This document shows, piece after piece, positions 194 to 54,859 of a DNA stretch of 64,000 nucleotides. A model generated the notes under the pieces. The model searched no databases. It was not told where the DNA came from and saw nothing but the letters and a program-made list of their open reading frames with translations. The translations under genes and the position numbers were made by a program. Position 1 is the stretch's first letter. Each line of letters opens with the position of its first letter. This stretch comes from a virus: UHGV virus genome UHGV-0134996; one strand, given 5' to 3'.

Positions 194-210
194 AGAATTA
201 TTAGAGCAGT
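194..210 (-). promoter_or_regulatory. C1 operator-like site (ImmC Op99 cluster)
   Basis: AGAATTATTAGAGCAGT resembles reverse complement of the 17-bp C1 operator consensus ATTGCTCTAATAAATTT. Confidence 0.55.
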
Positions 211-276
211 AAATTTTGAGAGAAAAATCCCACTCCACCAGCTAAAAACTGGATTGTTTTTCATAGTTGTTTGACA

Positions 277-293
277 ATTGCTCTAATAAATTA
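277..293 (+). promoter_or_regulatory. C1 operator (ImmC Op99 cluster) upstream of coi-c1
   Basis: ATTGCTCTAATAAATTA, 16/17 match to C1 operator consensus. Confidence 0.75.
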
Positions 294-531
294 TAGTTTT
301 GCCGCCGTTACGTAATACGACTTTGGATTCACTATTTAATGTGTCTTCAGCGTTGTAGAGCGGCTCAGAAGGAAATGAGCAAACAGGGAAACCTTATACA
401 ACGGCATTACAGCTATGCATTGCTCATCTTACACACAGCGCAATGTTGTTAGATTACCCCAGCATGGATCATGGGTGAAACAGTAGGTCAGAGCTTCAGG
501 CTCTGTGTTGTCAATACAGTGAGGCATAATT

Positions 532-741
532 ATGGCTTTCATTCAACCAACCATCGACGACGTTAGACATTGCTCTAACGCTTTATCTGTAGACCCTGCC
601 GAAACCGACGCTGCCCGCGCCATTGCTGAACACTACTCAAAGATATCCAATCAGGAGTACCGCATCACCCAAGACGACCTGGATGACCTCACTGACACAA
701 TCGAATATCTCATGGCAACTAACCAGTTAGACTCACAATAA
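532..741 (+). CDS. coi: Coi, C1 inactivator
   Basis: 69-aa ORF with GAGG RBS immediately upstream of c1; size, sequence and position as P1 Coi. Confidence 0.9.
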   Translation: MAFIQPTIDDVRHCSNALSVDPAETDAARAIAEHYSKISNQEYRITQDDLDDLTDTIEYLMATNQLDSQ

Positions 742-758
742 ATGCACTAATAAATCTA
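742..758 (+). promoter_or_regulatory. operator-like / late-promoter-like motif between coi and c1
   Basis: ATGCACTAATAAATCTA, variant of the C1 operator core CTAATAAAT. Confidence 0.45.
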
Positions 759-851
759 TTATTTTTGTTTGATCCCTCTATAATATAGGTCAGTAATGAC
801 CGGTTTTCTCAGCCGGGCGTTATTGACCATGTCAATTCTGGAGGAGGATCA

Positions 852-1703
852 ATGATAAATTATGTCTACGGCGAACAACTGTACCAGGAGTTCGTCAGCT
901 TCAGGGATCTCTTTCTAAAAAAAGCTGTTGCACGCGCCCAACACGTTGATACAGCCAGCGACGGTCGTCCTGTACGCCCGGTTGTCGTTCTACCGTTCAA
1001 AGAAACTGACAGCATTCAGGCTGAAATTGATAAATGGACTTTAATGGCGCGGGAACTGGAACAGTACCCAGACCTCAATATCCCAAAGACTATTTTATAT
1101 CCAGTGCCTAACATCCTTCGCGGTGTGCGCAAGGTTACAACTTATCAGACAGAAGCTGTGAACAGCGTCAACATGACCGCTGGCCGCATTATTCATCTGA
1201 TTGATAAGGACATTCGCATCCAAAAAAGCGCGGGGATCAATGAGCACAGTGCGAAATACATAGAGAACCTGGAAGCAACAAAAGAGCTAATGAGGCAGTA
1301 CCCGGAGGATGAAAAATTCCGTATGCGCGTACACGGCTTTAGCGAAACAATGCTGCGCGTTCACTACATCTCCAGTAGTCCTAACTACAATAACGGTAAA
1401 TCAGTTAGTTACCATGTGCCGCTGTGTGGCGTGTTTATCTGCGATGAAACTCTCCGTGATGGAATCATCATCAACGGTGAATTCGAGAAAGCAAAATTTA
1501 GCCTTTATGACTCCATAGAACCGATCATCTGCGACCGCTGGCCGCAAGCAAAAATATATCGCCTGGCAGATATTGAAAATGTAAAAAAACAAATTGCCAT
1601 CACTCGTGAAGAGAAAAAGGTTAAGTCAGCCGCATCAGTTACGCGCAGCCGTAAAACCAAGAAGGGGCAGCCAGTAAACGACAACCCCGAAAGCGCGCAA
1701 TAA
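852..1703 (+). CDS. c1: C1 master repressor of lysogeny
   Basis: 283-aa ORF, GAGGAGG RBS; N-terminus MINYVYGEQLYQEF and length as P1 C1. Confidence 0.95.
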   Translation: MINYVYGEQLYQEFVSFRDLFLKKAVARAQHVDTASDGRPVRPVVVLPFKETDSIQAEIDKWTLMARELEQYPDLNIPKTILYPVPNILRGVRKVTTYQTEAVNSVNMTAGRIIHLIDKDIRIQKSAGINEHSAKYIENLEATKELMRQYPEDEKFRMRVHGFSETMLRVHYISSSPNYNNGKSVSYHVPLCGVFICDETLRDGIIINGEFEKAKFSLYDSIEPIICDRWPQAKIYRLADIENVKKQIAITREEKKVKSAASVTRSRKTKKGQPVNDNPESAQ

Positions 1704-1705
1704 AT

Positions 1706-1730
1706 TATGCCCGGCATCAACCGGGCATTC
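1706..1730. terminator. hairpin between convergent c1 and ant-like gene (bidirectional terminator candidate)
   Basis: GCCCGG-catcaa-CCGGGC stem-loop followed by T-rich run. Confidence 0.5.
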
Positions 1731-1735
1731 TTCCA

Positions 1736-2791
1736 TTATTCAGCCGCCACCGGTTTTAACAAGCCAGCATCGAGCAGTTTACGCGTCAACCACTGCTGGC
1801 CTTTACCCGTTAATTGAGGCGTCAACCGTATCTGGTAGCCATCTTCATCATCCAGCACCACTTCTTTCACCGTGAAATACCCCGCATTGATGTACTGCTG
1901 GAACGGCACATTTTTACGTCCACCGGACGCTATCAGGATGCCGTTCTCCCGTAACCAGGCAAACAGCGCGTTTTGCTTAAGTCCAACAACCTTTGCAAAA
2001 TTTCCAATCAGGATCCCCTTAGCCACTGATACCCGGTCGGCAAAATCGACTTTGGGGGCTGCGGCCACCAGCTGCTGATTTAGCTGGTGGGCTTTCTGTT
2101 CCAGAAGTTGCTTTTGTTCAGCCAGTTCGGCAGCCAGGCGCAGAGCTTCGGGCAATGTTTGGGGGATCGCTGGAGAAGCAGCGCTAACCTGCTGCAACTC
2201 CTCCAGCTTGTCGATCAGCGAACGGCGGACCGCTTTTGACTCGCGCGCGGCGACTCGCAGGGCTTGTTTGAAAGTCATGGTGATAATGTCTATGTTTGCA
2301 CCATTTTTGCGACCTACACTTTTTGTGTAGGTCTCACCTTCAAGCTCATCTACAACCTTCTCAATAAACTTATTATTTCTTACTAATGGTTCCCCACATA
2401 ACTTACGCGCCTCATTAACCATCTTTAACAGCGTCTGGCTGTCGATTGTGTCTCCGGTGTTGGGGATAGCATCCATGACCGGTGCTGGTGTGGTTGCTGT
2501 CAAAGGCTTTGTAACGACAACATCTGGTTTGCTTGCTTTCATTCTGTGTGCCTCCTTGCGTGTTTCGGCTGCGACGGTTGCGTAATTCAGATGCCCCTGT
2601 TCGAGCAGGTATTCGCGGATATCAGACAACAGAATGCGGTGAACAGCGTTCTTGTCCTTTCTCCGGTAAAGTTGTTTGGTGATCATGAAGTAGTTGGCAA
2701 TAACACCCGGTATATCCCTGGTACTGATACAGGATGTGTGCTGTTCAATTGCCTCAATCATTTCTTCACGGGTGACTAATGACGTTCTCAT
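1736..2791 (-). CDS. antirepressor, Ant-like with KilA-C type C-terminal domain (second copy in window)
   Basis: 351 aa; C-terminal half near-identical to the ant at 53270-54310 and related to KilA C-terminus; ATG start overlaps upstream icd-like stop (ATGA). Confidence 0.75.
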   Translation of the reverse strand: MRTSLVTREEMIEAIEQHTSCISTRDIPGVIANYFMITKQLYRRKDKNAVHRILLSDIREYLLEQGHLNYATVAAETRKEAHRMKASKPDVVVTKPLTATTPAPVMDAIPNTGDTIDSQTLLKMVNEARKLCGEPLVRNNKFIEKVVDELEGETYTKSVGRKNGANIDIITMTFKQALRVAARESKAVRRSLIDKLEELQQVSAASPAIPQTLPEALRLAAELAEQKQLLEQKAHQLNQQLVAAAPKVDFADRVSVAKGILIGNFAKVVGLKQNALFAWLRENGILIASGGRKNVPFQQYINAGYFTVKEVVLDDEDGYQIRLTPQLTGKGQQWLTRKLLDAGLLKPVAAE

Positions 2792-3009
2792 CGTCCCTCC
2801 TGAGCAGAAGTGTTAACAGGGAGGCACCAGTAACTGAGAGAATTGCGCGAGTTAGTTGAAAAACGGGCAGTAAAAATGCAGGGGCCATCAGGCAATTGAG
2901 AGCGTGCCTCATCTTCTGTCGGTGCAATAACGAAGTGATAGTGACGTTTTTGGCAGGAGTAAAAGCGCCAGATAAATTCAGGATGAGTTGGGGTAGGGAT
3001 AGTAGCCAT
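2788..3009 (-). CDS. Icd-like small protein, translationally coupled to ant-like gene
   Basis: 73 aa from internal ATG with AAGGAGG RBS; paralog of the 73-aa icd at 54307-54528 (PEFIWRFYSC...DGPCIFTARFS). Confidence 0.6.
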   Translation of the reverse strand: MATIPTPTHPEFIWRFYSCQKRHYHFVIAPTEDEARSQLPDGPCIFTARFSTNSRNSLSYWCLPVNTSAQEGR

Positions 3010-3329
3010 ATTGGCAGCCTCCTTAGACGTTGGTATGTAACCACCGCAGAAGAGACCAATCTTGCTGGCGGTGGACTGTACGGAGTTGGCCTTACTGGCG
3101 TCCAAGGTAACCAGCCTACCCGAAGGTAGCCCCATACAGCCCACCATTGTAGAGGTGTGCGTGTACGCCGATACAAAAAAAAGACGCGAGCGGCGTCTGT
3201 ATCGCCTTAGACTTAAGCGGGAGGCCAATCCCGGCACCCGTTTTAATGAGGTGCCTGATAAGCATAAACCGAAAATGCCTCAAGGCGCAAGAGGTCAGGT
3301 TCAATGTAACATCGGCAGTCAAAAAACAC

Positions 3330-3346
3330 AATTTATTAGAGCAAAT
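3330..3346 (-). promoter_or_regulatory. C1 operator upstream of the icd/ant-like module
   Basis: AATTTATTAGAGCAAAT, 16/17 match to reverse complement of operator consensus. Confidence 0.7.
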
Positions 3347-3348
3347 AT

Positions 3349-6112: not shown

Positions 6113-6565
6113 TCAGATACGTGCGGATGTGGCATTACCGTAATGACGGTGCTGACGGACCACCTTATTGAAAAGTTGACGCGCCATCACCCAAGGCTGG
6201 TGCTCCCGGCGTTCCTTTTCGTCCTGCGTCATATAGAGTTCGTTCTGGAGTTTTTCATCAAACCGGCGCGGAGCGCGGCTGCGGCGAAAGAATTCAGGAT
6301 TCAGAGAGTGGATCTGAAATCTACGTGGGCGTGTACTGTCATCAATCAAAACAGACGAATACTTAGACACAGCGATAGCCTTTAAGCGCAGATAAACATC
6401 GCGCTTATCGACATCCAGATGCGGGTATTCCTTTTCAAGAATTGCTGCGAGTTCTTTCGCTGATAGAAGAGATTTAGTGCGGATCATGTAATCCGCAATC
6501 TCGTACGATGTTATTCGTGAGTGATTTATTTCCATGAAGTGGCGTCCCTGCCAGTTAAGTAACAT
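6113..6565 (-). CDS. lpa: Lpa, late promoter activator
   Basis: 150-aa ORF directly upstream of pacA, P1 position of lpa (gene 10). Confidence 0.7.
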   Translation of the reverse strand: MLLNWQGRHFMEINHSRITSYEIADYMIRTKSLLSAKELAAILEKEYPHLDVDKRDVYLRLKAIAVSKYSSVLIDDSTRPRRFQIHSLNPEFFRRSRAPRRFDEKLQNELYMTQDEKERREHQPWVMARQLFNKVVRQHRHYGNATSARI

Positions 6566-6637
6566 CCTGTCACCTACTGATTAGCCCATGTCAACTAATC
6601 AACGTGGAATATAATACCCTCGATTAAAGAAATAGCA

Positions 6638-6654
6638 ATACATTAGAGCAATTT
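6638..6654 (-). promoter_or_regulatory. C1 operator-like site upstream of lpa
   Basis: ATACATTAGAGCAATTT, partial match (ATTAGAGCAAT core). Confidence 0.45.
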
Positions 6655-8582: not shown

Positions 8583-8972
8583 TTAAATAACCGGACAATC
8601 ATCAAATTCCCCACTTCGGGCATCATTGATGACATGAGTGATCACACCAAAAACAGCATTACTGCCCGTGTATCCATCGTCATCTACTGGTAACGCCTCT
8701 TTCTTCCCGGTGCTTAAGTCCTCCAGGTGCTGGCGCGGATACTTCCTGTATCTCTTTATGCGATATTCACCCTCCATAGCGCACACAAGCAGAGAACCAT
8801 CAACCGGAGTAAGCGAGGAATCAACCACCAGCAAAGCACCCTGCAATATTCCCTCACGGTGATGGCTATCAGCTGCCCGCATGAAGTAGGTCGCTGAAGG
8901 ATGTCTAATTATCTGCTGATCAAGAGAAATTCGGCTTTCAACATAATCCGCCGCAGGAGAAGGGAAGCCCAT
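8583..8972 (-). CDS. humD: HumD, UmuD-prime-like S24 peptidase-fold protein
   Basis: 129 aa with UmuD/LexA C-terminal domain similarity; SOS box just upstream. Confidence 0.8.
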   Translation of the reverse strand: MGFPSPAADYVESRISLDQQIIRHPSATYFMRAADSHHREGILQGALLVVDSSLTPVDGSLLVCAMEGEYRIKRYRKYPRQHLEDLSTGKKEALPVDDDGYTGSNAVFGVITHVINDARSGEFDDCPVI

Positions 8973-8990
8973 AGCGTTTTACCTCAATGA

Positions 8991-9010
8991 TACTGTTTAT
9001 TCATACAGTA
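8991..9010. promoter_or_regulatory. LexA box (SOS operator) upstream of humD
   Basis: TACTGTTTATTCATACAGTA contains CTGT-N8-ACAG palindrome 20 bp upstream of humD start. Confidence 0.8.
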
Positions 9011-9095
9011 TACATTGAAAAGGCATAGTTTGTGAAAGCGGGGTTTGTAGGCGCGCCACGCTGGGGGCTAATCACATTTCTCCCCCATCTTGCCG

Positions 9096-9347
9096 TTATT
9101 TTTTTGGTGCATCCTCGTTCTGATACACCGGATCGCTCCCTTTTGGCAACTGGAGGCTTAACTGCCGGTAGTGCCGTAGCCGTTCCATGAAATAGGCGCG
9201 CAGGTTTTCCGGTTGCTCACGGGCCACCTGCTCTGCAATCACAGGTATATTCAGCCGTTCTTTGTAAGCAACGCCGCTGGCGGCAAGGTCTACGTTCACC
9301 TTGTCTCGCTCTTCCTGGCTTTTAGCTGCTATATTTCGATCTGACAC
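9096..9347 (-). CDS. hot: Hot, homolog of DNA polymerase III theta subunit (HolE)
   Basis: 83 aa; [33 protein letters not shown] matches HolE family; GTG start with GGAGG RBS. Confidence 0.8.
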
Positions 9348-9379
9348 AAGAAACCTCCAGGAGTTAGTGGATCAGGCAC

Positions 9380-9730
9380 ATGCACAATAACGTTCTCAAT
9401 GTTAGCCGTTCAATTCAGACAATCAGAGACTGCACCAGTGTGGTGGCATCAATCCCGTTGCGGAACAGCATAGACGAACTGCAAATTCGTGTATTGAATC
9501 CGAATCAGGCTAATAAGCAATTGCGCTTTATTTTGACGCTGAAAAGTGAAACAGAGGGGATAAAGCACAGAGTAAAAGTGTTTTCTGAGGCCATTCTGCT
9601 TAATGGGAAGCTCCGGCATCTGGTAAGGCCAGAACGTCAATATCCTGACGTCCTGGCGCGTGAAAAAGACCTTCTTTCTGAAGTTCAGGATAGGGTGATC
9701 GATTTCGTCAAATGCTATCCCCTGCATTGA
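9380..9730 (+). CDS. hypothetical protein (only plus-strand ORF in this block)
   Basis: 116-aa ORF, opposite to neighbours; no strong RBS seen. Confidence 0.3.
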   Translation: MHNNVLNVSRSIQTIRDCTSVVASIPLRNSIDELQIRVLNPNQANKQLRFILTLKSETEGIKHRVKVFSEAILLNGKLRHLVRPERQYPDVLAREKDLLSEVQDRVIDFVKCYPLH

Positions 9731-9996
9731 GGGCAGGTGTTCCCTTCCGCAAAGTAGGGAAAATTGCTATCAAGTTCATCACACCATCTGCGATGGTCGT
9801 AGCACCAAAACGCCTCCCACGGTGCACGGAAATACTTCATCCACCAGGACACTCGATCAGGTATATCTGCTGGTGGCAGTTCTTCTGGCAATAATTTGCC
9901 TGATAATTCCCTTTCCGCCCGCGACAGCATTTTTTTGAGGCTCGCGTTCTCTTTTTCAAGCTCATCTACGCGCACCTGTAATTCAGCTTTCGTTGG
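9715..9996 (-). CDS. hypothetical coiled-coil protein
   Basis: ORF from internal ATG (MPTKAELQVRVDELEKENASLKK...), 14-nt overlap with upstream gene. Confidence 0.45.
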   Translation of the reverse strand, partial: PTKAELQVRVDELEKENASLKKMLSRAERELSGKLLPEELPPADIPDRVSWWMKYFRAPWEAFWCYDHRRWCDELDSNFPYFAEGNTCPQCRG

Positions 9997-10663
9997 CATG
10001 GTCCACCTCATGCTTTTCAGCCACCAGCGGCAATAAAGCCCTGGCCATCTTATGAACCAATAGTGCATCAATAATGCCAAGCGTATGCCCCGGCTTAATG
10101 TTTAATGCCGCCTCAAGGCGACACCTTTCCAGGCCACTTTTCTCGGCTTGTTTATGATGATCTGGTGTAATAACGTCGCCCAAAACACGGCTAATTCTTT
10201 CTCGTAATTGCTGGGTGCCAGCACACTTGATCGCTGTATCGTGGAGACGGTTAACCAGTTCGCGATAAACATGCGGCTTAATTCGGATACGTTCACCGGT
10301 GACGCCCTTTCCTGGTGCTGGCACCGAACTATCCGGAATATCCGGATAGTTGCCAGCCTCGTAAGCTACCCGCAGCCAGTGCATGAATGTTTCAGTGGAC
10401 ACACAACCACAGTCCACATCGATTTTCCCGCGTTGCTGTTCCAGCCAATGCTCAAAATTCAATCTACACGTATTACTTTCATGTTGCTCTTTTTGTCTCA
10501 AGGCCAGCACCTGTTGGGCCAGTTCCAGAACGATACCGGGTGACGCTAACCTCTCAAATTCCAATAAATAGTTTGCGTCAGGATGACAAGTAGCCTCGCC
10601 TGCAAAAAATACCAATTGCTGTAAGTATGCTGTCGTTAGAGTAGTCATTTCTTTTTGCGCCAT
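9983..10663 (-). CDS. hypothetical protein
   Basis: 226-aa ORF in tightly packed minus-strand operon. Confidence 0.5.
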   Translation of the reverse strand: MAQKEMTTLTTAYLQQLVFFAGEATCHPDANYLLEFERLASPGIVLELAQQVLALRQKEQHESNTCRLNFEHWLEQQRGKIDVDCGCVSTETFMHWLRVAYEAGNYPDIPDSSVPAPGKGVTGERIRIKPHVYRELVNRLHDTAIKCAGTQQLRERISRVLGDVITPDHHKQAEKSGLERCRLEAALNIKPGHTLGIIDALLVHKMARALLPLVAEKHEVDHANES

Positions 10664-11019
10664 TTCTTTTCACATTCCTTAGTCCATTTTTCAATGTTCA
10701 TTTTGGCAATATCAGTCATTCCATCACCTAAGAAATACTTTTTCCGGTACGTCTTGCACTTAAACCACACTACAACAGCCACCAGCCAGAAAATAAAAGG
10801 CCATACGGCAATACCAACTCCAGCCGCGATAAAGCCCAATATCCATAAATGAAGCTCTCCAACTTCTGTTTCCGGCAATATTCTTAAAGAATTAAACAGC
10901 AGGCTGAACGAATGGTCGTATGCATTGGCAGTATAAGACATGCAATCCATATAATTAAAGTCATAGCCTGCGGCTGCCGCCCATAATGGGCGGTCAAGAA
11001 AATGTTTTAGTGTCATCAT
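10645..11019 (-). CDS. hypothetical membrane protein
   Basis: 124-aa ORF with hydrophobic helices (IAAGVGIAVWPFIFWLVAVVVWF). Confidence 0.5.
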   Translation of the reverse strand: MMTLKHFLDRPLWAAAAGYDFNYMDCMSYTANAYDHSFSLLFNSLRILPETEVGELHLWILGFIAAGVGIAVWPFIFWLVAVVVWFKCKTYRKKYFLGDGMTDIAKMNIEKWTKECEKKWRKKK

Positions 11020-11025
11020 ATTAAT

Positions 11026-11319
11026 TTAAGGTTCAGACCAGTTATCTTCAATAGCAATGCTTAATCTTTGTAGCCATTCTGCTAATTTCAGCATTGCTTC
11101 TCTTTCGCTTAAACCACACGGAAAATCATCAAGCGATATTGTTGGCTTGAAGTTTCCCAAATTATCCATTTCAACGGTCAGATTTTGCTCCAGAACGGTA
11201 TTTCTTACACGGCTATTGTGCCGAAGCAAATATACTGAACGTGATTTATTGGTTTTGTGGTCGAACGTATATTCGGTAAGTATCATCTGACTTCCTCCAT
11301 GATTATTACCGCGCCACAT
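11026..11319 (-). CDS. hypothetical protein
   Basis: 97-aa ORF. Confidence 0.45.
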   Translation of the reverse strand: MWRGNNHGGSQMILTEYTFDHKTNKSRSVYLLRHNSRVRNTVLEQNLTVEMDNLGNFKPTISLDDFPCGLSEREAMLKLAEWLQRLSIAIEDNWSEP

Positions 11320-11342
11320 AATTACTCCGTGTTAATTGAAAT

Positions 11343-11645
11343 TTAGCTATTAATCTTCACTTTTATCGCGAACACCTTTACCGGTTTATCACCGAAGTGT
11401 GGTTGTGTGATTGTTTTTATTTCATATCCGTTATACGGGACGTCAATTCTGCGACTGAAGTCTTTGCGCTTCGGATATCCCTTTGTGATAATCAGGCGGT
11501 AATACTTACGGTTAACGAGGCGCTTATTCCAGTAGTCATTACACAGGCGATACTCTTCCGTTTTCTCCCCGCGAATCATGGCATCGAAGTATTCACCTTT
11601 AACGGCAAGTTGCAGGTTAGCCATTACCTCACCTCCAGTCTCCAT
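11343..11645 (-). CDS. hypothetical protein
   Basis: 100-aa ORF. Confidence 0.45.
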   Translation of the reverse strand: METGGEVMANLQLAVKGEYFDAMIRGEKTEEYRLCNDYWNKRLVNRKYYRLIITKGYPKRKDFSRRIDVPYNGYEIKTITQPHFGDKPVKVFAIKVKINS

Positions 11646-11884
11646 ACCGCCTGACCAATCCGGCTGGCATGGGTATCTTTGGATACTGTTCCGTCTTTAG
11701 CCAGCTCCATAAGAATTTTGCGCAAATCTGCCGAACGCCATTCTTCATCAGGAAATGCCTTCTCCATTGCCAACCGCAGATTCCAGGTTGCCATCCTGAA
11801 TGGATATTCCCCGCCGAGAGCTTTATCTTGCAGGGCAGCCCGGGAACGCATCACCTGCAAAACCTTCTCTTTTACATCCATCAT
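11624..11884 (-). CDS. hypothetical protein
   Basis: ORF from internal ATG (MMDVKEKVLQ...) overlapping upstream stop as ATGA. Confidence 0.4.
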   Translation of the reverse strand: MMDVKEKVLQVMRSRAALQDKALGGEYPFRMATWNLRLAMEKAFPDEEWRSADLRKILMELAKDGTVSKDTHASRIGQAVWRLEVR

Positions 11885-12738
11885 TTCGCCTCCTGCGGCG
11901 GTTCTGGTAGCGGCATCCAGAACAAGGCGTTCCCTAACCACGATAAAGTGCCGTCGCTCAACTCCACGTATTCCCCTTGTACCTGTCCTGCCATATACTC
12001 GCCGTGCTTTGAATAAATTAAAATCCAATCATCTTGAGGGGGCATTCGCTCACTACAGCTTATCCAACCATCCGGAGTTACCGGAGAGTTGCCTGCCAGT
12101 CTACGCAAAACAGCCTTAACAGCCTCAATACGGTCATCATCGTAACTTTCCGCCGTATCTATGCGGTCGAGCATGATGATTGCGTTATCAATATCAGGAT
12201 TGCCGGTCCACTCATTACCGCGATTGGATTCGGCAGCCTGGTTGCCGCGTACTGGTTGATTGTCGGCTTTACCCAGTCTGTCGTCGCTGCATGAATGCCC
12301 TTCCAGCCAGGCCAATGCTTGTCGCATGAAATACGCAATATGTTTGCCGTGGTAATCGTCTTCATCGATGTGAAAAGCGATACTACGAATGTATTCAATT
12401 GCGTTTTCAATGGCCTCTAACGCTATCGGCGCTGGCGGAGTGGTATATAGTTTTCGACATTTGTATATCCAACCGGCATGGTCAGGCGTGTCTGTAAAAC
12501 GCAAATCGTCTTCGTAGCACTCACGACTACGTTCTTTCCATTCCGTCCACGGAACACCGCTATTCCAGGTGGGGCGAGTGCAGGACTGATACAGAACAGG
12601 CTCTGCTTCCAGCGATGCCAGCACGATACGCGCCAGTTCTTCCGCTTCTTCTGCTGGCAGTACAACGTTGCTATCAGGTCCGTATGTTTCGCGCCACTGC
12701 TTGATTGTCAGCAGTCGCTCTTTGGTAATAGTGATCAT
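11881..12738 (-). CDS. hypothetical protein
   Basis: 285-aa ORF. Confidence 0.5.
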   Translation of the reverse strand: MITITKERLLTIKQWRETYGPDSNVVLPAEEAEELARIVLASLEAEPVLYQSCTRPTWNSGVPWTEWKERSRECYEDDLRFTDTPDHAGWIYKCRKLYTTPPAPIALEAIENAIEYIRSIAFHIDEDDYHGKHIAYFMRQALAWLEGHSCSDDRLGKADNQPVRGNQAAESNRGNEWTGNPDIDNAIIMLDRIDTAESYDDDRIEAVKAVLRRLAGNSPVTPDGWISCSERMPPQDDWILIYSKHGEYMAGQVQGEYVELSDGTLSWLGNALFWMPLPEPPQEAK

Positions 12739-13322
12739 GCCGCGTTTCCTTCTTTCTTATTAACAATTACACCGTCATATATTTCATTAAGGTGCCCTCT
12801 CAACTCCATGCGCCTTAATGCAGATAACATGTAATCGCATTCAACCTGCTTATTCCCAATAAAAGGTTTATCTTCAGGGTTACCCCAACAGCAATTACCC
12901 TTGGGCCACCCATGTACTTTCCGTACTCTTCCGTTAACAACGTGAAGTAATCCCCAGCCAGGTGGTAAATCCTCAATTGAAATAATTCCCGGCTCACTAA
13001 TAAAGAATCGCCAGTCGCCCATTCCAAGAGACGGATTTTTACGAAAACGCTTTTTTCTATCTGCCAACAAATCAGCACGAGAACACTTCGCCTCTATCAG
13101 GCATGATGCTGAATTTCTGAACCCCATAGCATCTGGCTGTTCTCCGGTACTGGTTACAGCTATAAAGCGGTCATGAAAACAAACCTTGAACCCGTTGCGC
13201 TTAAGGAACTTGTACGCAATCTGACAGAGTTCGCGGTGTGTTAACGCCATATCACTCTCCTTTAGTGCGCAAATGGTTTTTCCAGCGGTTTTGCGCCGCG
13301 CTGGGCTTTTTGCAAAAACCAC
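12735..13322 (-). CDS. hypothetical protein with possible PD-(D/E)xK nuclease-like motif
   Basis: 195 aa; ...GEQPDAMGF...CLIEAKCSRADL... resembles PD..(D/E)xK signature. Confidence 0.4.
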   Translation of the reverse strand: MVFAKSPARRKTAGKTICALKESDMALTHRELCQIAYKFLKRNGFKVCFHDRFIAVTSTGEQPDAMGFRNSASCLIEAKCSRADLLADRKKRFRKNPSLGMGDWRFFISEPGIISIEDLPPGWGLLHVVNGRVRKVHGWPKGNCCWGNPEDKPFIGNKQVECDYMLSALRRMELRGHLNEIYDGVIVNKKEGNAA

Positions 13323-13785
13323 AATCCATCATCCCGTAATATTTCATCAACCCCATCCGTCGGTTGCTGAGTCTCACCCACTGCCAGACGCCAGGAGCGT
13401 TTCTACGAACTAACAGAATCTTTGCTTTACGGTTTTTCATCTTACTGCGTACCCTTTCTTCCGCCTGTTCTGTGACGCAGTAGGCTTACGCTTTGCGGCA
13501 AAAGCCACCTGACCAAATGGATGGAGTACCGCTATCTTATGGTTGCTAATAACCAGCTCCACCACACGCACAGGTCGCTGTAAAAAAAGTCGTTTTGCCT
13601 TACGGTTTTTCATCGCTTTGCTCTCCTGCGTCTCTTTGCTGCTCGTCGTGCCGCTGCAATACCGGTATGGCGGCGCTTTGGTGCCGGGATGATGTTGTCA
13701 GCCATCAGGACATGTGGCTTTGCAATTAGCGCAGAAGCCCAAAAACGAGTCGGGTACGGTAACAAGCCGATACATGCCACACGCA

Positions 13786-14541
13786 CTACTCACCTCCGTT
13801 GATGCGAATGCCAGCGGCACGGGAATCATTCCATCGCTTTACTTCTTCACGAATTACGTCAATGCATTCTTTCGAATCCATTAGGTAATCTTCATCAAAA
13901 AGCCTTTCCTGTTCGTTTTCTATCGCAACAATGATTGCTTCAACTAACTTTTGTGCCTGAGAACCACTTTCTAACTCTGCAATGCGCTTCTCTGCGGCTT
14001 CCAGCTTCTCGCGCATATCGTCAACGTACTCGACCAGAGATCCGCCAGCAGGAATTTCGCACTCCTCGACCAGTTGGAAGTAGATATCAGCTGCGGCCCG
14101 TGTGTTGCTATGCCTAGCGTCGCCCATCTCACCTTCACGAAGAGCATCGCGTTCGGCGGTAAGATTGGCTATTTTGCTGTCTTTGCCTTCCAGCTCAACG
14201 CGAAGCCTCCCTACCGTTAGCGCAATTTCCTCGTTCTCCTGGTCACGGCGTTTGATGTATTGCTGGTTTCTTTCCAGTTCATCCAGTAATGCCGTCACGG
14301 TAGCTGGATTGGCTGCGGCGATGAATTCAGCATTGGCCTGCTGTTCTATTTGGAAATCTTCATCGAAACCGCTTTCAGGATGCGCTCCTTCAATTCTGCA
14401 AATGGGAATATATCCAGCAACCTCGCGATGAATTAGTGCATCATCACCATCAAATCGTCCCTCTCCATATTCGAGCGACCACACACCACACGTTGCTTTC
14501 TCTGCCTTTTCACGCAGTGCCTGATAGTCAATCTTGCTCAC
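13786..14541 (-). CDS. Ead/Ea22-like coiled-coil protein (paralog 1)
   Basis: 251 aa; N-terminal DYQALREKAEKAT..W motif and coiled-coil centre. Confidence 0.55.
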   Translation of the reverse strand: MSKIDYQALREKAEKATCGVWSLEYGEGRFDGDDALIHREVAGYIPICRIEGAHPESGFDEDFQIEQQANAEFIAAANPATVTALLDELERNQQYIKRRDQENEEIALTVGRLRVELEGKDSKIANLTAERDALREGEMGDARHSNTRAAADIYFQLVEECEIPAGGSLVEYVDDMREKLEAAEKRIAELESGSQAQKLVEAIIVAIENEQERLFDEDYLMDSKECIDVIREEVKRWNDSRAAGIRINGGE

Positions 14542-15272
14542 TGGTTGCCTCCTTTGCGAAGCTGGGCAGCAAAGTCAACTAACCACTCAGTCATTTCAAC
14601 CTTCCCTACCAGGTCTGAACCAGGGTGCATACAGCAATCACTCTGCGCCGCTTTGAAATCCTTATACTCATATTCTTGGGCCACCAGATTTTTTGCAGCT
14701 TCTATAGCAGCATCCACCCCCTGCGCCCGGACTTCAGCCAAGAAAGCGTCGGTGGCTGACATATTTCCTGTTGCCTTCATGGCCTTCAAAATAACCAGAA
14801 CGCCATCTCGCCCAACCACCTCAGCGATAACCTCGGTGTTGTCGCCAACAACATCGCAGAATGCCTGAACTGCCTTACGAGCCAGCTCATTCTCCACTGC
14901 CAGCGCCGTGCGATTACCCTCCAGCTCTGCAATGCGCTGTTTTGCGGCATCCAGTTCAATCGACAATTTTTCCAACTGCTCTTGATGCTTCTTGTATTCC
15001 TGATATGCGTGCCAAGACTGACCTTTGCGCACACTATCAGTGATATCAGTAATCTGTTCTGGTGTTAGCGTGGTCAGTGGCTGTGATGGGAAAATAAGCA
15101 CTTTCCCGGAATCCCAATCAAAACCAGCGTGAATTGACTGAACCTCAACTGAAGGTGTTGAACCAATGCTGCCAGGCGAATGAACAACGATTGTTACATC
15201 CATATCGCGACGATGGCTGTGGTTGTTGGACAAAATACGATTCACCAACTCAGAAAATTTGGAAATTTTCAT
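14538..15272 (-). CDS. Ead/Ea22-like coiled-coil protein (paralog 2)
   Basis: 244 aa; shares ATDAFLAEVRAQG and coiled-coil with neighbours. Confidence 0.55.
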   Translation of the reverse strand: MKISKFSELVNRILSNNHSHRRDMDVTIVVHSPGSIGSTPSVEVQSIHAGFDWDSGKVLIFPSQPLTTLTPEQITDITDSVRKGQSWHAYQEYKKHQEQLEKLSIELDAAKQRIAELEGNRTALAVENELARKAVQAFCDVVGDNTEVIAEVVGRDGVLVILKAMKATGNMSATDAFLAEVRAQGVDAAIEAAKNLVAQEYEYKDFKAAQSDCCMHPGSDLVGKVEMTEWLVDFAAQLRKGGNQ

Positions 15273-15555
15273 GCTGATTCCCCTTTCTCTGCTCTCTCCT
15301 GTCGGAACATCACTATCATCAGGTCGCCTTTTGTCGCTATCCTGGCTGTTGTACCTGGTTCAATGCGGCTAAGCTCAAATGCGTCATAGAACGCTTCTAA
15401 TGCCTTCTGGCGTAGTTCCTGTTTGCGCCGTTTTTTCCACTGTTTTAGGAAAATGGAACCCAGCCATCGCCATGTGCGGGACATGATGTAAAGCCAACCG
15501 AGAAGTGCCAGACCGGTATTTAGGAGCGTATCGATCGTTATTGTCGTGTCGATAT

Positions 15556-16266
15556 TCACTGGCTGCTTCCTTTGCGAATCTGTTCCGCCCATTCTTCAAG
15601 GGATTTCTCCGCATATTCACCAGACAGGCCATCAATCGGATGCGCTTCATTAGCCAACTCTTCTTTCGCTGACAAAATCATGCGTGTAACGTCGAAAACT
15701 TCACGCAAAGACTTATTGATAAATCCGTGATTGAACGCAGCAGCAAGACGGCTGGCGGTATAGTTAATCCCCTCGTTGCGTGCTTCCGCACGAATTTCAG
15801 CCAGAAAAGCATCGGTAGCTGGAGTTTCGCTGTGGTGCAGGGCATCGTTGATAATCATTGCAGCAACTCCGGCCTGCCCTGCATCCGTGACCGACACATG
15901 ATCAAGAGTTACAGCCATTGCGAGTTTCAGCCCGGCGTTCTCTGCCACCAGAGCCGCGAGCTTAGTCTCAAGCGGTGCTATTCGGCACATAGCATCAATA
16001 TTTGTGTCCTCCAGGCGCTTAATTTCGCCCAGGAGTGCCAGCGCAACTTTTGGTGGGATAGCCGCGATATAACGGGCATTAGCACCAGCATTCCTTTGCC
16101 CATCAATGCCAGGCCAGTCAATAAAGTATCCGCAATGCCTACCCTCAGACGTGCGCGCAGGATAAATGCCGTTATGACCCGGCAAAATATATGCTACCCA
16201 TTCATCTTGCGTTGCCTGTTCCGCCGCCTCGCGCAGTTCTTGATAGTCAATTGTCATTCTCGCCAT
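15556..16266 (-). CDS. Ead/Ea22-like protein (paralog 3)
   Basis: 236 aa; MARMTIDYQELREAAEQATQDEW... and ATDAFLAEIRAEA shared with paralog 2. Confidence 0.55.
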   Translation of the reverse strand: MARMTIDYQELREAAEQATQDEWVAYILPGHNGIYPARTSEGRHCGYFIDWPGIDGQRNAGANARYIAAIPPKVALALLGEIKRLEDTNIDAMCRIAPLETKLAALVAENAGLKLAMAVTLDHVSVTDAGQAGVAAMIINDALHHSETPATDAFLAEIRAEARNEGINYTASRLAAAFNHGFINKSLREVFDVTRMILSAKEELANEAHPIDGLSGEYAEKSLEEWAEQIRKGSSQ

Positions 16267-16898: not shown

Positions 16899-17106
16899 TG
16901 GATGCCTCCCAGCAAATTTGTCTTATATAAGAACTGTTAACGCGCTTTACTTTCCCGTCGAACTCCAGTTTCTTTAGACGACGCAAAACGTATGCCGTTT
17001 TGAGTGTGCGATATTTATCCCTAAGCCAGTTGGTCACGACGTAAGTCATACAGCGCCCGTGTTCTTCCAACACCCGAACTATTTCTTCGTCGGTTGGCTT
17101 GCTCAT
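16891..17106 (-). CDS. hypothetical small protein
   Basis: 71-aa ORF, overlapping neighbours in operon fashion. Confidence 0.4.
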   Translation of the reverse strand: MSKPTDEEIVRVLEEHGRCMTYVVTNWLRDKYRTLKTAYVLRRLKKLEFDGKVKRVNSSYIRQICWEASSE

Positions 17107-17324: not shown

Positions 17325-17333
17325 ACGCTCGCC

Positions 17334-20096: not shown

Positions 20097-20097
20097 T

Positions 20098-41468: not shown

Positions 41469-42278
41469 ATGCAAGAAGAGAAACAACACTACCTCTACGT
41501 TCTGGTGCCAGAGAACGGAGATACTTTTAAAATCGGCATTTCATGTGGTCCATTGGCACGGTTTAAAGGACTACAAGTGAGTCCCGATTTTGCGCTTTCA
41601 CGGGTCTATCGTGGTACGCGTTTGGCAATGGTTAATCTTGAGCGGGCTTTACACGCAACCTTTTTCCCCTGGAATGCGCCGTGGGAGAAAAGCGTCGGTG
41701 GCGGGCATACTGAATGGTTTACACGAGAGTGTCTTGATAAGGTTTTGGCTCATATCGAATATCTAAATGATATGTGGGGAGGGATTCTCGAGCGCATTAA
41801 GTCGAATGATTTACTTCAGCGTCCAGTAGATGCTGCTTGCTCTTTCGAAAAAGAGCTGGATGTTACTTCTATCGTGACTTTCAAAGATGACGCAGGAATG
41901 AGGGACGTGGCTTATGTCTCCATATCTGGCTATGAACCGGACGCGATCCGCGCTCAATGTGAATTGCTGAAAGCAATGTTTATGCTTCGGACTAAATATC
42001 CCTGGGATACAGGGCGGGTGTGCTTCCCTATGGAAGAGTTAACCGCCACCATTGATTCCCAGCTTTACCACGATAATCCAGAGAAGTTTTTTAGCCTTTT
42101 AGCCGGTAATGGGCTTAACTGTGTGTCCGGGCTGGGGCGAAGTAGAATCCAACATGCCTCGCTCTTCGGTCCCTTCTTTTACGATCGACACGGGTACTTT
42201 GAGGCTGAACTTCCGGCGCTTACGCGTGCTATAGATACTATCGATTTCGAACGATTATTCGCTGCTCTTAGCAAATAA
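41469..42278 (+). CDS. T5orf172 (GIY-YIG-like) domain protein with unknown C-terminal domain
   Basis: 269 aa, ATG start; N-terminal YLYVLVPENGDTFKIGIS...GGGHTEWF matches T5orf172/MUG113 signature. Confidence 0.6.
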   Translation: MQEEKQHYLYVLVPENGDTFKIGISCGPLARFKGLQVSPDFALSRVYRGTRLAMVNLERALHATFFPWNAPWEKSVGGGHTEWFTRECLDKVLAHIEYLNDMWGGILERIKSNDLLQRPVDAACSFEKELDVTSIVTFKDDAGMRDVAYVSISGYEPDAIRAQCELLKAMFMLRTKYPWDTGRVCFPMEELTATIDSQLYHDNPEKFFSLLAGNGLNCVSGLGRSRIQHASLFGPFFYDRHGYFEAELPALTRAIDTIDFERLFAALSK

Positions 42279-42285
42279 CACTGAT

Positions 42286-42306
42286 GCCCCTGAACGGGGC
42301 TTTTTT
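42286..42306 (+). terminator. rho-independent terminator after the T5orf172-like gene
   Basis: GCCCCTGAACGGGGC hairpin followed by TTTTTT. Confidence 0.8.
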
Positions 42307-42446
42307 GTGCCCTCCTTGTAACTCTCAATCGTGCAAAATGAACCAAACATGCAGAGAATGCTATGTACAAGCATCTACGCATACATTATTATTTTATGCA
42401 GCATTTTTAATTAAATTCAAAAATACAGCATAAAGGATGACTTTCG

Positions 42447-50224: not shown

Positions 50225-50248
50225 AAAGCTCCTTCGGGAGCTTTTTTA
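50225..50248 (+). terminator. rho-independent terminator of head/sheath operon
   Basis: AGCTCCTTCGGGAGCT hairpin followed by TTTTTT. Confidence 0.85.
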
Positions 50249-50320
50249 TTTGGAGAGGAAAGGGTGCATTGAGGATACCTGACACACGAAGAGTGGCGGG
50301 ATCTCTCCCCGCCAGGTCTC

Positions 50321-50476
50321 TTACCTTTCAGATTCGTAGGCTGTGAAGACAGTGACCTCCGTCTGGCTGGTTCGGATTCGTACCTCGCAGAGGTCTTTCC
50401 TCGTTACCAGTGCCGTCACAATGACGGTTAAACAGATGACGATCAGAGCGATTAATATCGCTTTTTGCTGCTTCAT
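50321..50476 (-). CDS. hok: Hok/Gef-family type I toxin
   Basis: 51 aa MKQQKAILIALIVICLTVIVTALVTRKDLCEVRIRTSQTEVTVFTAYESER, near-identical in pattern to E. coli Gef/HokC; frame missing from ORF track. Confidence 0.85.
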   Translation of the reverse strand: MKQQKAILIALIVICLTVIVTALVTRKDLCEVRIRTSQTEVTVFTAYESER

Positions 50477-50534
50477 AGCCTGCTTCTCCTTGACCTTTTG
50501 GTCGGTAAGAGGCTAATCTACGTATGCTAAGCAT
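50328..50534 (-). CDS. mok: Mok-like overlapping reading frame (modulator of killing)
   Basis: 68-aa ORF overlapping nearly all of hok in another frame and starting upstream, as in hok/mok/sok loci. Confidence 0.6.
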   Translation of the reverse strand: MLSIRRLASYRPKGQGEAGYEAAKSDINRSDRHLFNRHCDGTGNEERPLRGTNPNQPDGGHCLHSLRI

Positions 50535-50657
50535 AGATATGGCCTCAGATTAATGTTAAGCGTCTTGCAGGACGCGTAATGTTATCTGGGGCTTTCTTCT
50601 ATCTGCTTTTCGGGTAATGCCTGAAGCAGATAGCCTCAAGCACCCGCAACGATTGTA

Positions 50658-50984
50658 TCAATGTCTGGCTTTTTTTCTATAGAAATCACCTGGAAGGGTG
50701 AATATCCACATCAGAAGAAATGTTGCAGCAAACATGATCCCTAATGGCCAGACCGCGCCAAAGAAAATCCATACTAAGATCTCCTCTGCTCGTTCTTTGC
50801 GGTCGATATCGACAAGCATTTTTCGGCTGATCATGTATACACAGAAGCCAATACAAACATATCCTGCAAAAGCGATCGCTAACTGTAAAAAATCAGATTG
50901 CATCTCCGACCTCAAACTGAAAACGCCAGGTGACTCCAGATTAGAGCAATCTATCACCCTCTGAATCCTGCCGGTATACCCCAT
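50658..50984 (-). CDS. small membrane protein downstream of repL
   Basis: Two hydrophobic helices; overlaps repL 3' end so start likely internal (MQSDFLQ...). Confidence 0.45.
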   Translation of the reverse strand: MGYTGRIQRVIDCSNLESPGVFSLRSEMQSDFLQLAIAFAGYVCIGFCVYMISRKMLVDIDRKERAEEILVWIFFGAVWPLGIMFAATFLLMWIFTLPGDFYRKKARH

Positions 50985-52629: not shown

Positions 52630-52699
52630 TTTTTCTCCAAATTTGCATCAACCTTCAATCACCAGCTCGAAATGGTGATTCTTTGCACTCAGAAAACAA

Positions 52700-52716
52700 A
52701 ATTTATTAGAGCAAAT
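52700..52716 (-). promoter_or_regulatory. C1 operator controlling kilA-repL (Op53-like)
   Basis: AATTTATTAGAGCAAAT, 16/17 to reverse complement of consensus, about 70 bp upstream of kilA start. Confidence 0.8.
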
Positions 52717-52840
52717 TTTTCCAGTCCGATCCAGATCGGGTTGGTCGATCTGCTCAGAAACCTGTCAGTTCGCTGGCAGGTTTTTTTGTATAAGGCGTTT
52801 TTCAATGTGGATTTGTGGCTGGCTAAAACGAAAAAGGCCA

Positions 52841-52869
52841 CAGGTTTTACCCTGTGGCCTGTTCGGGCG
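52841..52869 (-). terminator. rho-independent terminator at the end of the icd-ant operon
   Basis: GGCCACAGG-gttttac-CCTGTGGCC hairpin followed on the minus strand by TTTTT. Confidence 0.8.
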
Positions 52870-52914
52870 CAACGCGCTGCTGTTACACTGCGGAACTAAC
52901 GCCCTCCAATGTTG

Positions 52915-53031
52915 TTATGCAATGTGGAGAAGTGAGGCAATCACTGATGCCAACACAGAACTTGACGCTCCGATGATGACAGGAACAATGATGTTGGTCA
53001 CAATCCACTTGCAAGCTTTTTGAAGAGTCAT
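52915..53031 (-). CDS. 38-aa hydrophobic peptide downstream of ant
   Basis: MTLQKACKWIVTNIIVPVIIGASSSVLASVIASLLHIA: ATG with GGAG RBS 7 nt upstream, one predicted TM helix; not in ORF track. Confidence 0.4.
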   Translation of the reverse strand: MTLQKACKWIVTNIIVPVIIGASSSVLASVIASLLHIA

Positions 53032-53100
53032 TACGAAGCTCCGCACACTTGCAACAGCAACTGCTTGCGGCTATCCTCTTGTTGATCAGACATAAGGAAT

Positions 53101-53146
53101 GCCCTCGCTGGTTGCCTCCATGCAACGTTGTGGCGAGGGTTTTTTC
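53101..53146 (+). terminator. plus-strand hairpin plus T-run (terminator-like) facing the small peptide gene
   Basis: GCCCTCGC...GCGAGGG stem followed by TTTTTT on the plus strand; no plus-strand CDS upstream. Confidence 0.5.
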
Positions 53147-53269
53147 TGTCTGGAGGCTACGCATCCAGGAGTTCATAACCCCCGCATAACGTTGCGCCTC
53201 CCCTGAAAAACAGGGTTGGGCATATCGTACACATGCCTGTAATTTATGGCAAATCTTGGTCTGAATACG

Positions 53270-54310
53270 TTAAGACAAGGACGCCACTGGTTTTAACAAG
53301 CCAGCATCAAGTAGCTTGCGAGTCAACCACTGCTGGCCTTTACCCGTTAATTGGGGCGTCAGCCGTATCTGGTAGCCATTTTCATCATCCAGCACCACTT
53401 CTTTCACCGTGAAATACCCGGCGTTGATGTACTGTTGGCGCGGTACGTTTTTGCGCGCACCAAAAGCCATGAGAATGCCGTTCTGGCGCAACCATGAGAA
53501 AAGGGCGTTTTGCTTAAGTCCAACGACCTTTGCAAAGTTCCCGATCAGGATTCCATTAGCCACTGATACCCGGTCGGCAAAATCGACTTTAGGGGCTGCG
53601 GCCACCAGCTGTTGTTCCAGCTGCATTTTCTGTTCTGCCAACTCGGCAGCCAGGCGTAGAGCTTCTGGTAATGTTTGGGGGATCGATGGGGCAGGGGAGT
53701 TTGCCTGCTGCAATTCTTCCAGTTTGTCGATCAGCGAACGGCGGACCGCTTTTGACTCGCGCGCGGCGACTCGCAGGGCTTGTTTGAAAGTCATGGTTAT
53801 GACAAGCATTGATGTTTTGTTCATTTTTTCCACTACACTTTTTGTGTAGTGCTCACCATCAAGCTCATCGAGTATTTTTTCGATGAATTTGTTGTTCCGA
53901 ACCTCTGGTTCCCCACATAACTTACGCGCTTCATTGACCATCTTTAACAGTGTCAGGCTGTCGATTGTGTCTCCGGTGTTGGAGATAACATGCACTGCTG
54001 GTGATGGCGTAGCTGAAGCAACAGGTGCTGGTTTTTCAACATTCAAATTATTACCGGTCATTCTGCGCGCCTCCTTTCTCATTTCTGCTGCCACTGTTGC
54101 GTAACGTAGACGTCCTTGTTCAATCAAATAATCCCTGATCTCGGCTATCAGTAGCCTGTTGATCACAGCCTTATCTGTTCGGGTATAAAAACGTCTGGTT
54201 ATCATGAAATAGTTGGCAATTGCGCCGGGGATCTCCCGTGTCGGCATACAGGTTGTATGCAAAGCGATCGCTTCGGCTATTTCATTACGGGTGACGAGAG
54301 GTGTTTTCAT
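53270..54310 (-). CDS. ant1: Ant1/Ant2 antirepressor (ImmI)
   Basis: 346 aa; start overlaps icd stop (ATGA); adjacent to kilA-repL as in P1 ImmI. Confidence 0.85.
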   Translation of the reverse strand: MKTPLVTRNEIAEAIALHTTCMPTREIPGAIANYFMITRRFYTRTDKAVINRLLIAEIRDYLIEQGRLRYATVAAEMRKEARRMTGNNLNVEKPAPVASATPSPAVHVISNTGDTIDSLTLLKMVNEARKLCGEPEVRNNKFIEKILDELDGEHYTKSVVEKMNKTSMLVITMTFKQALRVAARESKAVRRSLIDKLEELQQANSPAPSIPQTLPEALRLAAELAEQKMQLEQQLVAAAPKVDFADRVSVANGILIGNFAKVVGLKQNALFSWLRQNGILMAFGARKNVPRQQYINAGYFTVKEVVLDDENGYQIRLTPQLTGKGQQWLTRKLLDAGLLKPVASLS

Positions 54311-54528
54311 AAACCCCCCTGAACGTTGGCAGAGAAGGGGAGGCTCCAGTAACTAAGTGAATTGCGCGAGTCAGTTGAAAAACGGGCAGTAAAAATGCAG
54401 GGGCCATCAGGCAATTGAGAGCGTGCTTCGTCTTCAGTTGCTGCGATAACGAAGTGATAGTGGTGTTTTTTACAGGAATAGAAACGCCAGATGAATTCTG
54501 GGCGTGCGCAAGGATTGGCATTAACCAT
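54307..54528 (-). CDS. icd: Icd, interference with cell division
   Basis: 73 aa MVNANPCARPEFIWRFYSCKK..., translationally coupled to ant. Confidence 0.8.
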   Translation of the reverse strand: MVNANPCARPEFIWRFYSCKKHHYHFVIAATEDEARSQLPDGPCIFTARFSTDSRNSLSYWSLPFSANVQGGL

Positions 54529-54842
54529 AGTTACGGCCTCACAATCAGGTTTAACAACCTGCTACCCGCTGCTAAACAGGTGGCAGGACGTGACGGGGTT
54601 AGCAGACTGGCGATTGTGAAACCAGCAGGCCGAAGCCTCCCCATCACGCCCCACCATAATTTGGGCGTAACGCGGTTTTACGGACACAAAAATACCGCAA
54701 TATCGGATATCTGCGGCTGTCCGCACAATCATTCAGGCTGCTAAACCCGGTCGCAGAATTTGCTACGACGGCGGAACTATAAGCCTGAACGATTAAAAGG
54801 TCAATATGATGCGAAAAGATAGCATTCGCGACTTAAAAATAC

Positions 54843-54859
54843 AAATCTATTAGAGCATT
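54843..54859 (-). promoter_or_regulatory. C1 operator of ImmI (Op51-like)
   Basis: AAATCTATTAGAGCATT, 14/17 to reverse complement of consensus, upstream of the c4/icd leader. Confidence 0.65.

Follow-up and report, generated by a model that had tools for sequence, protein, structure and literature searches.

The C1 operators of a P1-like phage-plasmid: a known regulon with a probable addition at a second antirepressor module

Introduction

The 64,000-nucleotide stretch of the virus genome UHGV-0134996 analysed here (the window) contains a recurrent, asymmetric 17-bp motif, which raises the question of whether its copies are operators of a C1 master repressor of the bacteriophage P1 type and, if so, which genes they control. 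The details of the C1 regulon of P1 have been known for decades, and the reference record annotates it down to single bases; its operators were defined by C1 binding in the footprinting literature of 1987-1992. Their number in P1 is given as 22, with exactly the consensus found in the window (PMC8546580). An original prediction, made from the nucleotide sequence of the window, had placed at least twelve such sites at operon starts and had assigned to repressor control a second icd-ant module, a block of Ea22-like genes, a glycosyltransferase/phosphatase cassette and hrdC-dmt.

Here, we present evidence that these sites are very probably the dispersed asymmetric 17-bp operators of a P1-type C1 in a P1-like plasmid prophage. 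The map as a whole is a rediscovery of the known C1 regulon of P1, in whose annotation the control of hrdC-dmt by Op68 and of ppp by Op83 already stands. The modest new content of the analysis is a site at 3329-3345 that appears to be an unlisted Op51-type operator heading a widespread second antirepressor module.

Results

Judged by its sequence, the window is a P1-like phage-plasmid, that is, a plasmid prophage. Punavirus genomes including P1, P7, RCS47 and JL22 match the thirds of the window at 95-99% identity (megablast against phage records), and blastn shows the window to be colinear with the reverse complement of the P1 record AF234172 from lox (window 134 = P1 94800) to P1 38736, with 93-98% identity across this synteny. 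The c1 repressor gene (852..1703, plus strand) lies in the orthologous position, and its product is identical to C1.100 of P1 at 279 of 283 amino acids (99%). Since the two repressors are nearly identical, the P1 operator consensus is applicable to the window.

The motif is far in excess of expectation. The consensus ATTGCTCTAATAAATTT, with three or fewer mismatches allowed, has 14 matches in the window against 0.37 expected; none of 100 shuffles attains this count, and the largest shuffle count is 3. A position weight matrix (PWM) trained on the 19 operators annotated in AF234172 finds 16 sites at or above a threshold of 14 bits, against a mean of 0.4 in Markov-1 random sequences, and for the core TGCWCTAAT the count is 16, where 1.14 are expected. 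To compare the sites with those of P1, the P1 17-mers were extracted and each was then aligned to the window with 60-nt flanks. Fifteen of the 16 PWM sites are positional orthologues of operators that AF234172 annotates as 'phage repressor C1' protein_bind features: Op99e, d, c and a, Op94, Op88, Op86a and b, Op83, Op82, Op72a and b, Op68, Op53 and Op51. Twelve of these 17-mers are identical to P1 and three differ by one base; Op99b, not counted here, is a further coincidence with a P1 protein_bind feature beyond the 15 PWM-grade sites. The annotated P1 promoter hexamers that are overlapped by orthologous operators are also conserved in the window, and the part of RCS47 that was compared has the same set of sites. 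The P1 record itself cross-references deposited operator fragments, PP1OP68A and PP1OP88A among them.

The predicted dispersed regulon is thus borne out: every site in the original prediction exists, and all but the one at 3329-3345 are orthologous to P1 operators. The predicted coordinates were right to within 1-2 nt, five of them being shifted from the exact positions 3329-3345, 6636-6652, 20380-20396, 52699-52715 and 741-757. The predicted list was incomplete, in that Op99c and Op99b were missed and a truncated Op55 was not seen. Most sites do stand at operon starts, the departures being Op99e, which faces cre (outside the window), the inverted auxiliary site Op86b, and Op99c, which is intragenic in coi.

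The operators of the immunity region would control the c1 switch as they do in the P1 annotation, from which the roles given here are taken. Oc1e (Op99e; ACTGCTCTAATAATTCT, 194-210, minus strand; T2C relative to P1, 22.1 bits) faces the leftward cre promoter P4cre. Oc1d (Op99d; 277-293, plus strand) is identical to P1, scores 26.4 bits and lies between the -35 and -10 of P1coi, where it would control imcAB-coi-c1. Within coi lies Oc1c (Op99c; ATTGCTCTAACGCTTTA, 569-585, plus strand), which is identical to P1; because it matches the consensus poorly (6.8 bits in a leave-one-out test), its status rests on the P1 annotation. Op99b and Op99c match the consensus poorly in P1 too. The bivalent operator Oc1ab (741-768) consists of Oc1a (Op99a; 741-757, plus strand), identical to P1, and Op99b (752-768, minus strand), with one change, both annotated in P1. 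It overlaps the -35 of Pc1, and its assigned role is C1 autoregulation.

Olpa (Op94; 6636-6652, minus strand; 19.6 bits) is identical to P1 including its flanks and overlaps the -35 of Plpa. Predicted as a weak site at 6638, it is an operator whose corrected identity is the gate on lpa (6113-6565) and, through lpa, on all late promoters. Further along, OpmgT (Op88; 18238-18254, minus strand), annotated in P1 and identical to it, overlaps P1pmgT and P2pmgT. Two inverted sites follow, both identical to P1 and annotated there: OpmgRb (Op86b; 20331-20347, plus strand), an auxiliary or partner site, and OpmgRa (Op86a; 20380-20396, minus strand), which overlaps the -35 of PpmgR and would control pmgR-pmgS. 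Between them stands a perfect hairpin, AAAAAACGTGATGAGTGTACATCACGTTTT (20348-20379), whose sequence is identical in P1 and which resembles a terminator of the upstream ppp-pmgQ operon.

The pair at 20331 and 20380 thus belongs to pmgR-pmgS and not to the glycosyltransferase/phosphatase cassette. Repressor control of that cassette agrees with the P1 annotation, and the operator responsible would be Oppp (Op83; 23097-23113, plus strand; C1T relative to P1), which the original prediction had demoted to a variant; in P1 it is annotated as controlling pmgN-pmgO-pmgP-ppp-pmgQ (20398-23095 in the window). The genes of the cassette are named glycosyltransferase and metallophosphoesterase in RCS47; PmgQ has no Pfam match, and its 'glycosyltransferase' label comes from the RCS47 RefSeq name only. 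O26 (Op82; GCACTAATAATT, 24004-24020, plus strand), identical to P1, lies in the divergent pmgL/gene 26 promoter region.

The remaining orthologous operators are likewise conserved. The bipartite site at 34054-34081 is, as predicted, the bivalent Obanab, with Op72b at 34054-34070 (plus strand) and Op72a at 34065-34081 (minus strand); it is identical to P1, where it is annotated as controlling the ban operon. Odmt (Op68; 37746-37762, minus strand), identical to P1, adjoins Pdmt and is annotated in P1 as the operator of uhr-hrdC-dmt, in agreement with the predicted repressor control of hrdC-dmt. OrepL (Op53; 52699-52715, minus strand), also identical, overlaps the -10 of PkilA and would control kilA-repL, the lytic replicon. 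Oc4 (Op51; AATGCTCTAATAGATTT, 54843-54859, minus strand; A13G relative to P1) is the annotated operator of the primary immI. As about 59 kb of the genome is all that the window covers, Oref, Omat and other operators lie outside it and are not seen.

One P1 operator is lost. On the evidence of the alignment, Orlf (Op55; 50935-50951, minus strand) is destroyed by a hok/sok insertion: its first 11 nt are kept, the sequence reading ATTGCTCTAAT and then, past the junction, CTGGAG. A core match persists, and the PWM score is below 8 bits. The homology breakpoint (P1 51585) lies inside Op55, after the 11th base, and rlfAB together with the 3' half of Op55 are replaced by a 108-amino-acid open reading frame (ORF) and hok/sok (50247-50951). 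Hok (50324-50476) is recognized by Pfam and sok (50471-50645) by RF01794; the 108-amino-acid ORF has no Pfam match.

The sixteenth PWM site, TTTGCTCTAATAAATTG (3329-3345, minus strand; two mismatches, 22.2 bits), starts 3 nt past the pacB stop codon, on the same strand. The pacB-c1 junction of P1 is only 24 bp long and has no counterpart of this site; relative to P1, about 1.6 kb is inserted between the two genes in the window. The insertion carries an immI-like module (1736..3254, minus strand) consisting of a leader, C4, icd and ant. The leader (3177-3254, minus strand) matches Rfam isrK at 60.8 bits (gathering score 50) and ends in a hairpin and T-run terminator. It is followed by a C4 antisense RNA (3064-3151, minus strand; RF01695, 75.9 bits, gathering score 45), which is predicted to fold in the same way as P1 C4, by icd (2788-3009, minus strand), which has an ATGA overlap with ant, and by ant (1736-2791, minus strand), whose product is 74% identical to the primary Ant1. 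The primary module of the window (53270-54859), with its own C4 RNA at 54576-54661 (RF01695, 69.6 bits), stands in the canonical immI location between sim and kilA-repL, whereas the second module lies outside that location, between pacB and c1 and not next to sim and kilA. The order of parts in the second module is nevertheless that of immI in P1 and P7 (Op51 - P51a/P51b - a1b1 leader - c4 - a2b2 - icd - ant1/2), and its operator stands at the same offset from promoter-like hexamers.

When the second module is aligned with the primary immI (54530-54875), the site at 3329-3345 matches Op51 column for column, and four landmarks are in register: the operators, the P51a-equivalent hexamers, the P51b-equivalent hexamers and the leader terminator. 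This register argues that 3329-3345 is a paralogue of Op51. The candidate P51a equivalent reads TTGTGT, 17 nt, extended -10 TGnTACATT, and the 3' end of the operator overlaps its candidate -35; the candidate P51b equivalent reads TTGCGC, 18 nt, TATGCT. The orientation of the site is that of most operators, the 5' end being the one farther from the gene. By analogy with Op51, its job is most likely C1 control of the upstream promoter of the antirepressor operon.

The site is also conserved among relatives. We scanned IMG/VR with a 39-nt leader pattern in order to avoid selecting on the operator, and all 43 leader-anchored loci with upstream sequence have the end of pacB followed by (T/C)TTGCTCTAAT(A/G)AATTG. 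Among 32 distinct sequences the operator varies only at positions 1 and 12, and the G at position 12 occurs also in Op94; the 8 nt beside it on the pacB side vary in sequence and, through indels, in length. The operator core is furthermore invariant in six PLSDB copies and RCS47. Since all 43 informative loci are P1-like with pacB upstream, what is seen is constancy of the operator without a contrasting context, and we regard this conservation as supportive, not decisive. Together with the paralogy to Op51 it supports the predicted placement of the second icd-ant module under C1.

Several observations weigh against an active operator at 3329-3345. A consensus promoter scan of the second module calls no promoter at the site, and the P51a-like candidate, found through the alignment to the primary immI, has three of six consensus positions in its -35. 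Conservation of the operator is weak evidence when taken alone because the relatives are close and the downstream leader is also nearly invariant. The site could instead be a passenger or relic without repression, the module being driven by a constitutive P51b-like promoter or by pacAB read-through; C1 bound there would then at most obstruct late transcripts reading through into the module and on into c1 in the antisense direction. The silence of the promoter scan suits such an origin, as does the position of the site 3 nt past pacB on the same strand. In P1, moreover, the main immI promoter P51b is annotated as lying downstream of Op51 and as not C1-controlled, and at the P51b position of the second module stands the corresponding TTGCGC-N18-TATGCT. 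We nevertheless consider a relic unlikely, since drift of the kind seen in Op55 would be expected of it, whereas every copy keeps 15 of 17 consensus positions beside a decaying flanking spacer, and the TGnTACATT -10 candidate at P51a-equivalent spacing is retained too. An Op51-type operator thus remains the preferred reading of 3329-3345.

The specificity of the second C4 RNA bears on whether the module behind this operator functions. Its loops, a' (AGGCCAA) and b' (CCTTGGAC), have their complements both in the leader (a1/b1) and ahead of icd (a2/b2). Across 49 copies of the module there are three a-types (TTGGCCT, TTGGAAC and TTGAGAC) and three b-types (GTCTAAGG, GTCAAAGG and GCAAAAGG) in five combinations, and a1/a'/a2 and b1/b'/b2 are complementary in 49 of 49 copies with no mismatches; the type found in the window has only G-U pairs. 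Such three-way compensation is what the mechanism of P1/P7 heteroimmunity predicts, and this covariation argues that the module is under selection. On these sequences, the module behind 3329-3345 is evidently live. Its loops are of a type orthogonal to P1 as well as to P7, and its leader scores as isrK and not as c4-a1b1. The primary immI (54530-54875, minus strand), by comparison, is identical to P7 (AF503408) across a1/b1, c4 and a2/b2 and is therefore P7-type and not P1-type, unlike most of the backbone of the window, which is closer to P1. A GC-rich hairpin, ATGCCCGGCATCAACCGGGCAT (1704-1735), which P1 lacks, stands between the convergent stop codons of c1 and the second ant; in its absence, transcripts of the second module would continue into c1 in the antisense direction.

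The module is widespread. It is present in RCS47, JL22, vB_EcoM-673R5 and several hundred PLSDB plasmids, with a copy that is 100% identical in NZ_CP104510.1; these and pTZ20_1P share with the window the same ant insertion and a variable pap-lxr block, and RCS47 has an extra operator identical to that of the window. That ant is inserted between pacB and c1 in pTZ20_1P and RCS47 is already on record, in a paper in which the word 'operator' appears nowhere (PMC6906374). We found no description of the 3329-3345 operator, its C4 or its leader in the literature and record annotation; the readable descriptions and annotations of these P1-like phage-plasmids give only 'ant' and short hypothetical ORFs, and the RCS47 record has nothing annotated between ant and pacB. 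By its Rfam match alone, the leader resembles that of the isrK/antirepressor locus of Salmonella Gifsy-1 (RF01394), in that it too precedes a C4-type RNA and an antirepressor; unlike the Gifsy-1 element, it is surrounded by a P1 backbone and follows a C1 operator.

The predicted control of the Ea22-like genes is of a more indirect kind. A PmgT-like gene (17334-18059) and a pmgU/V-like gene (9983-10663) flank a 7-kb non-P1 block (10364-17364), which is 1.3-8 kb downstream from Op88, the operator at the head of this gene string. The block contains two Ea22-like genes with Pfam Ead_Ea22 domains (13789-14541 and 15559-16266, minus strand) and a DUF551 domain (11884-12738, minus strand). The PWM finds no operator-grade site inside 10364-17364, so that the block has no operator of its own. 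All ORFs from 18059 to 9983 are on the minus strand, mostly with overlaps of 1-13 nt, and a consensus scan shows no convincing internal minus-strand promoter or strong minus-strand terminator in the block. Because these same-strand genes overlap and none of these elements was found, control of the Ea22 block by Op88/PpmgT is a reasonable inference, not a demonstration, and the block would then be co-transcribed with pmgT.

These genes might instead be moron-like cargo outside the regulon, transcribed from C1-independent promoters of their own. The block is missing in P1 and varies from relative to relative (PMC6906374), and it contains a 23-nt gap and a few weak hairpins; taken with the missing operator, these features fit cargo, and internal promoters could have been missed by the consensus scan. 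We think this improbable, because the genes are on the same strand as pmgT and most of them overlap, because the scanned region 8900-18400 contains fewer promoter-like sites than shuffles (4 against 12.6) and the block has no well-placed one on the minus strand, and because the block is bracketed by the pmgT and pmgU/V homologues of one P1 operon. Membership of the Op88 operon is therefore preferred. The insertion point corresponds to P1 85182/85183, inside the P1 pmgT frame (window 9983-18059 against P1 84488-85557), and the PmgT-like protein has 241 amino acids in the window against 310 in P1; given this position and the shorter protein, P1 pmgT may be a deletion fusion of two genes that are separate here.

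The three GCACTAAT-type sites, at 741-757, 23097-23113 and 24004-24020, had been offered as possible late promoters or weaker operators. They are operators (Op99a, Op83 and Op82), although the site at 24004-24020 fits the predicted string GCACTAAT(A/T)AAT inexactly. That they are Lpa-dependent late promoters instead is very improbable, having in its favour the earlier suggestion and the nearness of O26 to LP26 and LPpmgL. The eight annotated late promoters of P1 share, together with a -10 hexamer that follows after about 4 nt, a conserved 9-bp -22 box (AAGTGACTT-like) that is unrelated to GCACTAAT. None of these promoters overlaps the three sites, and all three are annotated in P1 as C1 operators. 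The LP26/LPpmgL box itself, AACAAATGACT, is distinct from O26, lying 25 nt beyond it and being conserved separately. The T6A form that marks these sites is an ordinary operator subclass, found in five of the 19 P1 operators, Op72b and Omat among them. The late-promoter reading was dropped for these reasons.

Finally, that the matches are chance AT-rich words in an AT-rich intergenic background, as the AT-rich 3' half of the motif and the chance-level PWM matches of 8-10 bits at 11000, 14426 and 29884 (about 7 are expected at 8 bits or more) might suggest, is refuted by the shuffles, by the excess at 14 bits and above and by positional orthology to annotated operators.

By blastn, the segments of the window that are foreign to P1 lie at 1752-3348, about 9341-10021 and 35190-35774, and further at 10364-17364, 40086-42348, 50247-50940, 52787-53286 and 55095-56138; in the last five, the PWM shows no further operator-grade site. 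At 40086-42348 the P1 repA and upper oriR region is replaced. A different, Rep3-type initiator with weak Rep3_N and Rep3_C Pfam matches (40256-41176) stands there in place of P1 repA, so that the plasmid replicon of the window is not that of P1; a gene with a T5orf172 domain (41469-42278) lies in the same region. Where P1 has its sim superimmunity genes, the window has two ORFs (54929-56131, plus strand) of 224 amino acids, with a sub-threshold match to PTP-like phytase, and 158 amino acids, with no match. They diverge from Oc4, in the same arrangement as simABC in P1.

Discussion

The window shares with P1 the asymmetric 17-bp consensus, the repressor and the positions of the operators relative to genes. 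It differs in having one additional site (3329-3345), a truncated Op55 and 7 kb of extra genes in the Op88 operon. The following considerations limit the assignment of the sites to C1. The experimental status of single P1 operators is taken from the GenBank annotation and from the footprinting work of 1987-1992, every function in the window is transferred from P1 by analogy, and two of the orthologous operators carry substitutions (Op99e T2C and Op51 A13G).

If the P1 model holds, monomeric C1, helped by the corepressor Lxc/Bof, would occupy each operator in the lysogen, an arrangement established for P1 and extended to the window by orthology. As most operators would overlap the -35 or -10 of a sigma-70 promoter, C1 should shut off its own coi-c1 switch through Op99a-e and, at Op94, lpa, the activator of all late promoters. 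It would likewise silence the lytic replicon kilA-repL (Op53), the ban helicase operon (Op72ab), uhr-hrdC-dmt (Op68), the divergent pmgL/26 region (Op82), the early operons pmgT, pmgR and pmgN-ppp (Op88, Op86ab and Op83) and the C1-sensitive promoter of immI (Op51). Inactivation of C1 by Coi or Ant would then cause all of these promoters to fire together. Relative to P1, this circuit would be changed in three ways: by a second leader/C4/icd/ant unit with an Op51-type operator, by the 7-kb block in the Op88 operon, and by the destruction of Op55.

We tentatively suggest that a second antirepressor switch, independently addressed and with a diversified C4, is common among P1-like plasmid prophages, so that two orthogonal immunity specificities are wired to one C1. 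The evidence leaves this somewhat short of an even chance. If it is true, 3329-3345 is a previously unlisted member of the C1 regulon, and the two specificities could decide which related phage-plasmids coexist, exclude or induce one another.

The value of the map lies in the correct transfer of annotation to the backbone of P1-like resistance or virulence plasmids, where it points to the cargo genes that are probably silent in the lysogen and switched on at induction. The phage-plasmids concerned spread resistance genes, and the second, orthogonal C4/Ant module found in hundreds of P1-like plasmids may bear on their heteroimmunity, coexistence and cross-induction.

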